DNA from: Pecten maximus
Taxonomy: Eukaryota
Direction: 5' to 3'
Assembly: GCF_902652985.1 (NCBI RefSeq)
Contig: NC_047023.1
Span: 28,396,001-28,460,000, forward strand
DNA length: 64,000 nt
Numbering within the stretch: position 1 is the stretch's first letter; the number at the start of each line of letters is the position of its first letter. Position numbers: made by a program. Positions 27,001 through 45,000 of the stretch are shown in pieces.

Positions 27001-30000
27001 TTCGAAGTCTGTCTACTTTGGGGTCATGTGTATGTATATATATATCAAACAAACAAAAAATGTCCCTTTTTCCCTATTTGTGTTTAGTAAAATTTGTATT
27101 CTGGTTTGGGTATGGAGATATGAAAGTCACCGTTGAAAAGGAGTTATAGAGACAAGATTGATTGTTTACGGTTGGCCCATGGGTAGATCGTCTCTAGATC
27201 TGCACGTGTACGCGCACAGAGCGTGCACCTTGCCGTGTCTGAGTGACTGTCGAATAGCTATACACCGGTAAGGAAAGCCCGTCTGGATGTTAATTGTCCG
27301 TAGTTACAGGTACATATACAAGTGTGTACTATTTGATTTCGGTAAGTGTTTCTGTGTTAGAACTTAGACGTTAAAATTAATATCCAACTCGATTTTTTTG
27401 GAATGTGCTATATTATGTTGTAGTTACCTCCCTTAGAACGTCAAATCCATGCCAGCAACCAACGAAAATATCAATCGATTGATACGTAAAGCGTATGTTT
27501 TTGCAGTGAAGCATGGGTATTGGTAACAGAAATACCATCCGTTTCGGAGTGTTGGTACTAGTGCTTTCAACCTGTAAAGGTAAGTACATAAATACTTGAA
27601 AAATACATTGATAGATTAACAATACATTTTACCACAGGGGTTTGATACAAATTCCAAACCATTTATGATTCATATGAATATAATTTGTGCCAAATGCATG
27701 TGAATTTTACGAAATACTAAGTTAAATCATAGTCTACATATACTTTTAGAATTAGAATTTAACGAGTAACCAATTTAGCCTATTACACTTAGTTATAATA
27801 TAGATATTATAACGATCATATCATACTAACTATTATTATTATAATTAAATACACTGTTTGTAAGTCCACGAGGTATTGTCTGTTTATCGTCTTTTTCAGT
27901 TTCCCTGAGTCAGAATGCCAGTAAGTATCACCAATTACATTTCACTTTTTTTTTTCTTTTTTTTTTTACAATACAACATTTTAAAAATACAACATAACGT
28001 CCGGCATCAGCGTTTTTCTTGGACAATGTTTTTATCAAGGCTGGAGTCATTTGGCATTCACATCCATTCAAGATTTCAGAGGTCAAATATGTTAGGCAAT
28101 AAGGAAAATGTTTTCTTTTTTTCAGTTTGTCATTGAACACCATTTTCAATGTAAAATAGACCAAATGTGTTTAAAACCACTTTCTGTTATCCAAGAGATA
28201 CAGGGGAGTTGAGTTTAAAATGTAGTATGCAATAAGGGTCAATTTTGACCCCATTTCCAAAATAAACAAAACGCACACAATATCTTACCCTAGTATTGTT
28301 GCATTTGAAAATGTACTTAATTAAGCGACCTCGTGTGTTGTTGCTTAGCAACGGCCCTTAGAAACGGGCCATATTTAGGGCAGTTTTAATGCCATGTCAC
28401 CAAGAGCGACAATGCTAGATACGTACTTTCACAAAAGTATCCTTATTTAAATACATCCAAATCAAACAGTGTATATCGTCAAAATCGCGGAGAAGGAAGG
28501 TGGCGATAAAGCGAGGTTTTACTGTATATCGTATGGACTGTAACTAGAGTTGGTCGTTATTAACTTGTGATATCATCAACAATCTATCTTAGCAACCAAA
28601 TATTCACCTTAGCAACCACATGTAATGCATATACACATACATATTATTTCGATTTTTTAAATTTCTGTTTTCTGCAGAAGTATCCATTTACATGTTAATA
28701 CTTTGGTCAAAAGTTGTGACTTTGATTAACTTCAAGTGATAACCATGTAAACATATACCTTAGTAACCAATTGCCCACCATAGCAACGAAATGCATGTGA
28801 TATTTACAAATTTATGACATACGATATTACCTTAGTTATTGTTGGTGTTTTAAGGAGCCAGTCATCTGCAGTTGACCAAATTACTTTTATCTTAGAATAT
28901 TTTACCTGTCGTTGGTTTAGATGTTTTTTTCAATCTACAATTGGAATATTTTTGTTGTGCAAGCATGCGCACATAGTTTTTCTTTGCATTAATTCCGACG
29001 AAAGTGGATCAAAATATCGATTTTGAACAAACAAGCTCTATTTAGTAGTAATATATTTTACGCAAATTCATTTTAGAAAAAAATATTGAAAATCAAATGT
29101 AATTTCTCTATCGATTAAAAATGCAACAGAAACCCACCAAACAGTACATGAACTCGTACATGTATATGATTATTCCCAGATGTTCGGGAGCACAATATGA
29201 TGCTATACTGCATACACTTCTTTGCCTGTAGGCTTGTTCACTATTGTGCGGTTTCATGACCTTTGTCCAACTGAAAGGTCACATGAATCAAATATATCGG
29301 ACTTCTTCCTAAATAAAGAAATGGAGATGTACACGACAGAAAAATCTGACATGTAATAAACCTATCGACACGATAAGATCAAATGCATTGGATGCTTTTT
29401 ATAACTATAAACAGGCCCTTTGAGCCACTTGCTTTTTATCGATACTGTAGAGTCATTGCACTGACTATGGGCGCCTTTATCACTTAGTCTTAAACGATAT
29501 CACTTAAACGAGTATGATGTCACTTAAACGACTTTGTGATGTCACTTAAACGACTATGTGATGTCACTTAAACGACTTTGTGATATCACTTAAACGACTT
29601 TGCCAGTAATCCACTCTCGTGTCAATAATACACGCTCGTGAGTCACGGCTGTTACAATTTCCCCCCTCCAAAATCGTGCATTTGTAAACAAACATGGCGG
29701 TGCCAAAACGTTTGAACGTCGGAGACCGTGTATTTTACAACGGAGAAAGCTCTTTGCCAGATTGTTAATTTCTATCAACCCTGAACAGACTTTGCTAAAC
29801 AATATGTTGTAAGGTCAATTTCCACAGGCAACCTTTGGGGAGCATTTCTACATGAATTGCTGGCCGACGTCCCCGAAAGTTCTCGTAACGTTGCCGTCAA
29901 CTGACTTGGGATTGACGTCAGCTTTTGAATATTAATTAGCACGCGCGCCTTATCGTTTCGTATGAATTGTAACAGCCATGTAGCGACACATTTCCCGGGG

Positions 30001-42000: not shown

Positions 42001-45000
42001 ATACTGTGCCTTAGGGAGCTGTTGGAGACAGGGGAATGACAGGTCCTATAGGACCAGTAGGGTCAACAGGACTGCAGGGACTCCAAGGCAACACCGGATC
42101 CCAGGGACTCACTGGAATTAACGGAGAAAGGGGCGTCACAGGCAACTTGGGACCTCAGGGTCCTCGGGGACGTACAGGCATACAGGGGTTACTAGGGGCA
42201 CACGGAAGTCGGGGTGAGACTGGTGATAGGGGAGATATGGGTGACGCCGGAAGTACAGGCATTAGCGGACTTCCGGCGGCCACTGGTGTGGCAGGCATAG
42301 CAGGCCAGGCAGGAATAAAGGGGCCACTGGGAGACAAGGGACCAATGGGATCCCAAGGGGATGTAGGTGTAGAAGGTGTAGCAGGATCAACCGGAATTCG
42401 AGGCCCTGTCTGGGATCCCTTTGGTAAGTAGGTACAGGGATAAACTAAAGGACTTGTCATCAGTTGACAGAGTTTGGTTTTAATTATCGTCGCCGTTAAT
42501 GCCTTTCTGTTCTTTGTCATACTGACGGTAGCAGAGGTTCTAGTCAATAATAAATTAACGACACCTTTTTCACGTTTACGACAATATAAATTCAGCAAAT
42601 TCAGTCCACACATAAACTGAGAAGTGTAATTGATTCATAAACTATCACACATGCGCATTATTATCTTTTCATGTTCTCTCATTTTGAAGTTTTTGAAATG
42701 CACCATTTAATAACAATTTTAACGCATTACCTGACTAGTTACTCATTGCTTCAGCACAAAACATAACCGATTCTGAATCCTGTGTATAAATATTTCAGAT
42801 GTGAACTATTGCGCCATCCACGCGGGGGACTGTGACCATGGCTGTACAAACAGCCCTGTTGGGTACACGTGCACCTGTCGACAGGGCTACAATCTACTAA
42901 ATAACGGAGACTGCCGAGGTAGGTATTGCTTGTCTGCCATTCCGTCTTTAAGGCTGCGAGTTCAATCAGTCAGTAGGACGTCAACTAATGCTATAGGGTG
43001 AAGATCTGAGATATGTGGTTCACTCACTTGCCGGGCGGTTAGCGTTTCTCGGGAGGCCGAGATCAACATGTCCTGGTTGCTCCGGAAAGGATATTGCGGT
43101 CCACGTGATTTCCATTGGGTTTGGGGAAGCCACCAGCTTCAAGGAGTTTTCGTTTCAAAATGACCGTGTCTGTTCATGGGAAAAGCAAACACAGGTTTTC
43201 AACTAACTTGGAGACATTTTTGAATTGAATTGATGAATTTCTTTTAATTTATAACTGTCCCCATTGTCCGTTTATCACACAGGATTTCATAAATGTAAAC
43301 TTTACATGATTTGCAACAATATCGAAACAAGTATACCAACTTGTAAGTCATCGCTCTTGTTGGCGCGGATAGAAGCGCTCGAGGGGTCTTAGTGTGGCAG
43401 AAAACCGGAGTACCCGGAGAGAACCCACGTGGTCAGACAGGTGACACAAATATCTTTTCATGTCCGATCTCGGAATCGAACCCTGGCTGCCTAGGTGAAG
43501 ACAAGCATGGCATAGCTAGAACAAGGAGTTTGAGGCTAGATTTCGCTTATACTAATGTCTCTTTATTAAAAAGTTTTATGTTTCCATTCCTCTGTCTCAG
43601 ATATTGATGAGTGTATCACAAAGAATGGTGGTTGTCAGTATTTCTGTCAGAACACCGCCGGAAGTTACGTATGTTCCTGTCCACAGGGATACATACTGGC
43701 GAGAGACGAACATAGGTGTGACGGTAAGTGTCCTAACCGGAACCGGAAGTACACTGTATAATGGCAATGTAAAATAAATTTTCGAATACAATTAATTCTA
43801 ATGTTTCTACCTTTTATATATAACTGTCGTTTTTTTTCACGGAATATATTAATACGATTTGTATGTTAAAATACTTCTAATGTCCCGTTATTGACGAGAG
43901 TGATTTTCATGAATTGATTGTCAGATATCGACGAATGTCTTGAAAATAATGGCGACTGTTCCACTGACCAAATGTGCATCAACACGTGGGATGGGCACAT
44001 GTGTTTAGGTCCCAGCACTGTTTCAAATGTCGCAGGTCTCTGTAAGTATGACGTCATATCATGTATTGGTTTTTATTTGTGTAAAACATGTGTATGGTAA
44101 TTATAACAGAATTCTGAACTGGTATGTACTAACCATCTCCATCATTTTGCTAAAAAAATATCGCAACACTGCTGTATGACCTTGACATACGTCTGTTTTT
44201 ATCCTATCAATTTTAAATCTATCATTACTTAAACTAAACAGCCACTACGAACGAAGACATGCTGACCTATTCCATGTTTGTTGGTATCATCATCTGGATG
44301 GCTGTTGTCACGTTCATCATGATCTTGGAAGTGGTTTTACTTCTTCCGGAACTCAACAACCGGTCCCGCCGTCCAGAGTCGCCAACATCTATAGCCCCGT
44401 CCGTCATAATTGAGGAGCAGAACCCAGAATACTATTTCCCCGCCTTCTTCCCGCGCGTGCGCCTTGGGATCCGGGATTATTACAGTAACGCTAGGTCAGA
44501 GACCAACGAGAAACGCCTGCGTCTGTAAACAGACATGAATTAAACTATCATAAAATGTTATCAACGTGTGATATTTTATTATACCCCCACCCCCGTCGAA
44601 AGAATGGATACAAGGTGTTTCAGTCCTAATTCTGATGATAATTGTGAAACAAAATGTTTTAATGCAAATACAATCTTAAAGAAACACATTTTGATGACAC
44701 TTGATTATATTTGCATCACCGAGTCGTTGTGCATTGTATTGTAATCGGTTCATTGATCAAATGTCAAATATTCAGTATAATTTTGTCTGGGTATAAGGAA
44801 CATATACACTTTCATGTACATCTTCCCTTGTTTTTTATGGAAATGTCAACTGTATTGGTTCAGAAGGCTAATTCAGACAACATAGTTCGAGCAATTTTTA
44901 TGTCGAAAAGATCAAACTTATTTCATGTTGAATGGTTTGTCACGTTCTAACGGAACTAGACGTGTTGTACACGTGTTATCGGTATACACGTAGACTAGGA

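Follow-up and report, generated by a model that had tools for sequence, protein, structure and literature searches.

An uncharacterized gene of the scallop Pecten maximus, LOC117334544, encodes what is probably a homotrimeric type I surface glycoprotein in which a collagen spacer presents beta-structured heads that may bind an extracellular ligand. The gene lies at 27513-44528 (+) of a 64,000-nucleotide stretch of contig NC_047023.1 (positions 28,396,001 to 28,460,000; hereafter the window). Single gene; product of 739 amino acids (aa). Order of parts: leader, two successive heads (1 and 2), 57 Gly-X-Y triplets, EGF module, calcium-binding EGF (cbEGF), 4-Cys half EGF, transmembrane (TM) helix and 58-aa tail. 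Judged by sequence comparison, the family covers at least two spiralian phyla. The model corresponds to the NCBI entry "uncharacterized protein LOC117334544 [Pecten maximus]" (P0001). The sequence is therefore already deposited as uncharacterized, and the gain is one of interpretation, not of new sequence.

Exons were placed on the + strand by stop-to-stop frames and splice-site listings. They were searched singly and never joined; whole-protein analyses are based on public protein records. The peptide of the exon at 35820-36059 (+) is 100% identical to LOC117334544 and shares 77% identity with a Ylistrum balloti protein of 740 aa (2 proteins at E ≤ 0.01 among 67 candidates). Start codon ATG at 27513, stop codon TAA at 44526-44528. 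Between them 13 coding exons and 12 introns are found, every intron GT-AG and the phases compatible, with a summed exon length of 2220 nt (739 codons and the stop). In-frame peptides of 13/13 exons occur in P0001, in the same order. No N bases are present within 27513-44528. Module borders are all phase 1, as is typical of shuffled metazoan extracellular modules. An earlier interpretation of the window from its DNA alone (the sequence-only reading) had placed the start at 27513 and the end at 44528, which match the gene model exactly. The gene it proposed is real, but the count of coding exons is 13 and not 12, including two 21-nt micro-exons; such exons are easily overlooked by eye, which probably explains the lower number. 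A second copy of the gene is absent from the window (tblastn matches outside the gene all at E ≥ 5.2). That no named family applies, as was also claimed, agrees with the NCBI label, with the lack of a Pfam match for the heads and with the failure to find the four LOC identifiers in the literature. No description of a type I membrane collagen was found there either, although supplements of scallop transcriptome and shell-proteome papers lie outside the coverage and may list the protein.

The leader (residues 1-22) is encoded by exon 1 (27513-27579, +), which begins with the ATG and ends in phase 1. Resembles a signal peptide: its sequence, MGIGNRNTIRFGVLVLVLSTCK, opens with basic residues, after which comes a hydrophobic core of nine residues, FGVLVLVLS. 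The sole Kyte-Doolittle 19-residue peak above 1.6 covers residues 650-684, with the TM helix at about 655-681 of 739. Exon 13 (44242-44528, +) encodes this helix (about 44271-44351), the 58-aa cytoplasmic tail (44352-44525) and the stop TAA. RSRR follows the helix on the inner side. The last Cys is at residue 632 or earlier, and the C-terminus is formed by the cytoplasmic tail. Sequons at N28, N35, N192 and N259 are invariant ectodomain columns. From these sequence features (N-terminal leader, single C-terminal TM helix, RSRR inside) the topology is read as type I, with the EGF disulfides, the collagen and the sequons predicted to be extracellular. The inner half of the helix carries Glu in 3/4 scallops and in the relative P0010 (described below); taken with the conservation of the helix, this may point to contacts between helices or to a partner subunit. 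The P. maximus tail contains NPEYYF and DYY. Among the other three scallops the place of NPEY is taken by NPEF, SPDY and STEF, and in the relative P0005 by RPEF; the block FPRVRLGxRDYYSN, including RDYYSN, is invariant among scallops. Leader, type I topology, single helix, tail of about 60 aa and both Tyr motifs had all been seen in the sequence-only reading and are borne out.

Between collagen and membrane, an invariant WDPF motif is followed by three phase 1-1 EGF exons. EGF1 (exon 10, 42799-42918, +) starts with DVNYC and has six Cys; Pfam EGF is passed with 26.5 bits against 21.5, EGF_CA is missed with 20.4 against 27, and FXa_inhibition matches at E 1.1e-7. EGF2 (exon 11, 43601-43723, +) carries DIDEC and C-x-N-x4-Y-x-C, conforming to D-x-D/N-E-C and C-x-N-x4-[FY]-x-C. 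Scores 37.4 bits with EGF_CA against 27 (FXa_inhibition E 4.3e-13) and is assigned as calcium-binding. Exon 12 (43925-44041, +) encodes an EGF truncated to four Cys (DIDEC...C.GP), together with a juxtamembrane linker rich in Ser and Thr. For this half EGF, EGF_CA stays below the cut-off of 27 (19.9), and Pfam matches reach only the first ~23-29 profile positions. The 4-Cys truncation is kept in P0005, P0009 and P0010. Of the two full cbEGF modules first proposed, EGF2 stands as such, and EGF1 is a full 6-Cys EGF but below the EGF_CA cut-off; the half EGF proposed beside them is real and kept in all full-length relatives.

The heads (residues ~31-179 and 188-342, each ~155 aa) are two copies of one domain. 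They share 44/156 identities in blastp (28%, E 6e-7) and align by hhalign over 146 columns (probability 94.5%, E 8e-8). Each starts with [YF]xG[YF]N.T, which includes a sequon, and contains two Cys and the motif C..LQLW. Each unit consists of three exons: a micro-exon linker and two half-domain exons of phases 1-0 and 0-1. Head 1 is preceded by exon 2 (27900-27920, +; 21 nt, phase 1-1, VSLSQNA), whose peptide is kept in 4/4 scallop orthologs. Exon 3 (32921-33150, +) encodes its first half, starting YVGYNIT and containing C..LQLW, and exon 4 (33490-33709, +) its second half; both are without a Pfam family. Head 2 is preceded by exon 5 (34265-34285, +; 21 nt, phase 1-1, DTQPSTV). Its first half is encoded by exon 6 (35818-36059, +; YFGFNQT, C..LQLW), homologous to exon 3, and its second half by exon 7 (36433-36655, +). 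Since a 21-nt phase 1-1 micro-exon precedes each head, the duplicated gene unit is taken to comprise linker, half domain and half domain.

No Pfam family was obtained for the four head exons at E ≤ 10, except for a sub-threshold ODAPH row, nor any head family on ortholog P0002, on P0005, P0009 and P0010, or on the fragments P0006 and P0008, each at E ≤ 1. Two rows below the Pfam cut-off of 27 bits, ODAPH at 13.8 and ASFV_P17 at 16.1, were disregarded. Against PDB sequences the head profile gave 0 matches at E ≤ 10. The fold was modelled with AlphaFold2 from a 10-row alignment (A4) whose first row is the Ylistrum head region. Mean predicted local distance difference test score (pLDDT) 73.2; ~80-94 over most of head 2. 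The model contains beta strands only, save one three-residue helical turn. An earlier model from three scallop head sequences (mean pLDDT 49.9) was kept out of the fold search. The two beta-rich domains of ~150 aa in the sequence-only reading thus reappear as mutually homologous, all-beta units.

The collagen stretch is 171 aa, or 57 triplets, in 4/4 scallop orthologs. Exon 8 (41390-41529, +) encodes a short linker and triplets 1-13, the collagen starting at 41413 (Pfam Collagen E 1.8e-7). Exon 9 (42015-42423, +) encodes the remaining 44 triplets, to 42410, and the WDPF motif (E 2.6e-22). Both scores with Pfam Collagen (PF01391, the triple-helix repeat), 78.8 and 31.2 bits, exceed its cut-off of 27.2, and by its repeat the stretch is of collagen-superfamily type. 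The 57 Gly-X-Y triplets given earlier are confirmed by counting; 56/57 begin with Gly in P. maximus. The main collagen exon is overlapped on the opposite strand, at 42155-42634 (-), by a Pro-rich frame of 159 aa, a mirror of the Gly-X-Y codons and not a gene.

Orthologs were recovered from P. maximus, Ylistrum, Mizuhopecten and Argopecten, one per scallop species, 737-740 aa (4 proteins at E ≤ 0.01 among 5172 candidates). A deep search was performed with HMMER, using a head-region profile (A2) of the three other scallops against 1.84 billion representatives. Seven proteins were found at E ≤ 0.001: P0001, P0005, P0009, P0010, the fragments P0006 and P0008, and P0007. P0005 (762 aa, E 2.6e-20) has two heads and 56 triplets. 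P0009 (1134 aa) has four weak heads and 47 triplets, and is the NCBI protein of the nemertean Tubulanus polymorphus (5 proteins at E ≤ 0.01 among 7998 candidates scored). The relative P0010, of 492 aa and incomplete at its N-terminus, has one partial head and 56 triplets. In P0005, P0009 and P0010 the collagen is followed by EGF modules, the 4-Cys half EGF among them, and then by a TM helix with G[LI]IxW. The tail motif PEFYYPAFFPR of P0005 is held in common with the scallop proteins. P0007, an Ig-repeat protein (E 2.8e-10), was rejected as a repeat-summed chance match (hhalign probability 0.5%; no match with the single-domain hidden Markov model, HMM). The same domain order, for which the sequence-only reading had proposed a search of lophotrochozoan proteomes, is therefore found in four scallops and the nemertean Tubulanus. 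The family appears rare; word-index searches are weak proof of absence elsewhere. Its proposed definition: at least two copies of a C..LQ[LI]W / GxxI.GF beta domain, ~47-57 triplets, the modules EGF, cbEGF and 4-Cys half EGF, followed by a TM helix bearing G[LI]IxW. LOC117334544 conforms to this spiralian head-collagen-EGF-TM definition, as judged by alignment A4, the domain HMM and Pfam on P0005, P0009 and P0010.

Constraint, as mean pairwise identity among the four scallops, is 73% in head 1, 69% in head 2, 61% over all collagen positions, 43% over collagen X/Y positions only, 88% in EGF2, 81% in the half EGF, 50% in the juxtamembrane linker, 83% in the TM helix and 70% in the tail. The stalk is regarded as a spacer because its length and its Gly positions are fixed while its X/Y sequence is free, and the anchor as functional because helix and tail are conserved. 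The pattern-recognition or shell-receptor role suggested in the sequence-only reading stays speculative. A single copy per species and head identity of 69-73% would point to a conserved ligand more than to an immune receptor under fast evolution.

The following mode of action is proposed. The 171-residue Gly-X-Y stretches of three chains would wind into one triple helix of ~49 nm, in line with collagen chemistry (rise of 0.29 nm per residue). The helix would stand on three calcium-stiffened EGF stacks and hold six beta-sandwich heads far from the cell surface. The stalk would act as a spacer, with constraint falling on the heads, EGF2, TM helix and the tail motif FPRVRLGxRDYYSN, as conservation suggests. 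By analogy, the heads may bind an extracellular ligand, for example a glycan or matrix component, and the conserved helix and tail may relay to adaptors or uptake. Nucleation of the triple helix could begin either at the EGF/TM end or at head 2, in the manner of the V domain in Scl proteins (PMC8968730, PMC6736723). Trimer formation is proposed because of the 57 Gly-X-Y triplets, and ligand binding by the heads because of the beta-sandwich model, each its one basis. For three copies of head 2 (residues 160-323 of A4 row 1), complex prediction without an alignment gave a score of 0.00 against a mark of 0.32, which weighs neither way on a trimer.

Several observations weigh against this reading, and concern the helix, the heads and the tail in turn. 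In P. maximus the Gly repeat is broken by Ala at triplet 43 (AAT in GLP-AAT-GVA; residue 476, 42276-42284, +). Mizuhopecten has Glu for Gly (EAQ) at another triplet, and the AAT break occurs in P. maximus only; the stalk thus tolerates single Gly breaks. Pro makes up 12/171 collagen residues (7%), with 9/56 in X and 3/56 in Y. Thr is the commonest residue in Y (15/56). The collagen composition of LOC117334544 is atypical for an animal and unusual. Thr-mediated hydration or glycosylation is a possible stabilizer of a Pro-poor helix. In human collagens Pro is given as 25-31% of X residues and Pro/Hyp as 33-42% of Y residues, and for Gram-positive collagen-like proteins the figure is 48% Thr in Y (PMC8968730, as far as that source was available). 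Because Pro is scarce relative to human collagens, the stability of the triple helix is uncertain. No coiled coil or known trimerization domain was seen.

As to the heads, no PDB entry was matched by Foldseek at E ≤ 0.001, and TM-scores stayed ≤ 0.34 because the query comprised two domains. The top rows of this search are beta-sandwiches in tandem, with the tail tip of mycobacteriophage Bxb1 (2.1e-3) ahead of factor VIII, peptidylglycine monooxygenase (PHM), F-lectin and CBM22. The BFVD fold search gave 15 matches at E ≤ 0.001, mostly phage tail proteins (many of them minor tail proteins); the best, at 9.9e-10, is a Caulobacter phage protein, and TM-scores are ≤ 0.36 throughout. Atlas leads score 0.87-0.88, all below 0.9 and thus leads only; behind the clusters of viral collagen and BclB-like type come Lectin_like, PHR and DUF4082. 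Because PDB fold matches at E ≤ 0.001 are absent and TM-scores low, the lectin-like idea draws on fold class and on Atlas leads below 0.9. On the model, each head would be only a beta-sandwich of the broad lectin/carbohydrate-binding-module kind, and family membership does not follow. As to the tail, no recognized signalling domain was found in it, and N-P-x-Y is present in only 1/4 scallops.

The alternative that survives best is a structural or adhesion membrane collagen, in which the triple helix itself does the work and ties the cell to the matrix like collagens XIII and XVII, the heads serving mainly to register and nucleate the chains. Considered unlikely, though by no means negligible. 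The long uninterrupted triple-helical region and the single-copy, slowly evolving orthologs suit it, as does the nucleation of the helix by an N-terminal globular domain in Scl proteins (PMC8968730, in the part available). An RGD in the collagen of P0001, P0004, P0005 and P0010 (4/7 proteins checked) also speaks for it, but the RGD positions disagree and the motif is missing in 3/7. Specific binding sites on the helix would be expected to be conserved, whereas X/Y is the least conserved structured part (43%). Head number moreover varies from 2 to 4 while the stalk persists, which suggests that function resides in the heads.

Improbable, at about half that weight, is a shed ectodomain that acts as a soluble or matrix factor (shell, byssus, haemolymph), with the membrane form as its precursor, as in ectodysplasin, gliomedin and the MACIT collagens. 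Furin releases MACIT ectodomains (PMC4678570, in the part available), and the poorly conserved juxtamembrane linker (50%) could be accessible to proteases. However, R-x-[KR]-R is absent from the ectodomain in 7/7 proteins checked and occurs only on the cytoplasmic side, just inside the membrane. A TM helix at 83% and a tail at 70% identity, with its invariant RDYYSN, would be unexpected in a disposable anchor.

Very improbable is horizontal transfer of a head and collagen cassette from a phage or bacterium, later fused to animal EGF and TM parts. Phage tail proteins are the best structural matches to the heads, and a viral collagen cluster (0.87) comes first among the Atlas leads, but Atlas scores below 0.9 are merely leads, and PHROGs gave nothing under E 0.2 for 5/5 head sequences. 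Commonest Thr in Y with scarce Pro recalls the Gram-positive collagen-like proteins (PMC8968730), and Scl1 has the same order of N-terminal head, collagen and C-terminal anchor (PMC6736723, both sources in the parts available); the nemertean relative, however, is of ordinary animal composition (Pro 14/47 in Y). None of the proteins from the 1.84-billion HMMER search has a prokaryotic or phage-like architecture: four have the same layout, two are fragments and one is spurious. The heads are, besides, split by phase-matched introns.

The least credible alternative, an annotation artefact that wrongly fuses neighbouring genes (heads before, collagen-EGF-TM after an intact retrotransposon inside the 4.7-kb intron 7), is set aside, as the same head-to-collagen junction is common to the Ylistrum, Mizuhopecten and Argopecten orthologs, P0005 and the Tubulanus protein, the end of exon 7 and the start of exon 8 are both phase 1 with GT-AG borders across the element, the head part lacks a stop or TM helix of its own, and a leader is missing from the collagen part. 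The exons on both sides form one gene, as the sequence-only reading had supposed, because the phases match and because head, collagen, EGF and TM helix occur as a single protein in four scallops, P0005 and the nemertean. The element itself is an antisense, unbroken frame of 1190 codons at 37391-40963 (-). Because Exo_endo_phos (E 8.2e-11), RVT_1 (E 4.8e-34) and zf-RVT are matched in Pfam, it is identified as an APE-type non-LTR retrotransposon (long interspersed element, LINE). Its frame reads DIESNPGP, a 2A-like ribosome-skipping motif, at 40547-40570, immediately ahead of the endonuclease; 2A-like motifs were previously known from APE-type non-LTR elements (PMC3708506, in the part available).

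Further features of the window are as follows. Intron 2 contains a tandem array in which a 34-bp unit recurs 70 times, with a higher-order period of 242 bp (30442-32852), and intron 5 one of 39 bp x ~37 (34399-35825). A third array, 39 bp x 31 (44955-46168), begins 0.4 kb past the stop codon and yields long spurious frames on both strands (44918-46207). Another open frame encoded by tandem repeat is at 49688-50199 (+). Ser-rich frames of 346 and 239 aa, at 13971-15011 and 16168-16887 (+), are without Pfam match at E ≤ 1 and are probably exons of a neighbouring gene. The only N run is of 151 bases (52872-53022). No tRNAs are present within the 64-kb window.

Beyond the preferred reading of a ligand-binding type I receptor, a wider one may be offered as doubtful speculation: that the protein founds a spiralian group of inverted (type I) membrane collagens, that its undescribed heads are nearest in fold to phage tail receptor-binding modules, that its helix, rich in Thr and poor in Pro, is akin to that of bacterial collagen-like adhesins, that a microbial-style lollipop was here independently built or anciently acquired, and that it serves as a trimeric glycan, pattern-recognition or uptake receptor.

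Among known systems, class A scavenger receptors (SR-A1, MARCO, SCARA5, CL-P1) offer the closest functional comparison: single-pass, with a collagen-like stalk and membrane-distal heads. In most of them the head is of SRCR or C-type lectin type; Pfam matched neither SRCR nor lectin in LOC117334544, exon by exon at E ≤ 10, or in ortholog P0002 at E ≤ 1. Theirs is a type II topology with C-terminal heads, and they are thought to be homotrimeric (PMC4493455, in the part available). LOC117334544 shares the collagen-like ectodomain, but is type I, with N-terminal heads and three EGF modules between stalk and membrane. By analogy, it would represent the design of class A scavenger receptors with the chain polarity reversed.

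MACITs (XIII, XXIII, XXV, col-99) are likewise membrane-anchored collagens, conserved in bilaterians. Their defining features are a type II orientation, several collagen domains separated by non-collagenous (NC) regions, and a conserved motif with cysteines at the C-terminus (PMC4678570, in the part available). None of these three features is present in LOC117334544, which is type I, has one 171-aa collagen domain and no Cys after residue 632. It differs also in that its one 57-triplet domain has at most one flaw, its C-terminus is cytoplasmic, and the ectodomain has no furin site. The type II topology that the sequence-only reading ascribed to classical membrane collagens and to class A scavenger receptors agrees with PMC4678570 and PMC4493455 to the extent that these were available.

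The streptococcal lollipop adhesins Scl1 and Scl2 are alike in their N-terminal globular head, collagen stalk, C-terminal anchor and Thr-rich, Pro-poor triplets. They are homotrimeric, and their head nucleates the helix (PMC6736723, PMC8968730, in the parts available). They differ in being bacterial, with an alpha-helical head, an LPATG wall anchor and no EGF; LOC117334544 has introns, animal EGF modules and all-beta heads.

CCBE1 also combines calcium-binding EGF and collagen repeats. It is secreted, with EGF before collagen (both also noted in the sequence-only reading), no TM helix and no head domains; in LOC117334544 the collagen stands before the EGF modules and a TM helix is present. CED-1, Draper, MEGF10 and SCARF are similarly type I, with membrane-adjacent EGF modules and a short tail, which in P. 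maximus bears an NPxY-type motif. They have no collagen, many more EGF modules and an EMI domain. Among the scallop orthologs N-P-x-Y is kept in one of four. C1q, collectins and ficolins resemble LOC117334544 in combining a collagen stalk with trimeric recognition heads (theirs). These proteins are soluble, with C-terminal heads; no C1q, lectin or fibrinogen Pfam matches were found in the exons, P0002 or the relatives.

The membrane collagens and collagenous receptors named in PMC4678570 and PMC4493455, in the parts available, are all type II. A conserved type I version would indicate that the heads-on-collagen-stalk design can be built with either chain polarity. It raises the question of which end nucleates such a helix, that of the EGF modules and TM helix or, as for Scl proteins, that of the N-terminal heads. 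It adds an unnamed beta-sandwich domain to the catalogue, and it provides mollusc and nemertean adhesion, immunity and matrix-sensing biology with a new family of surface proteins.

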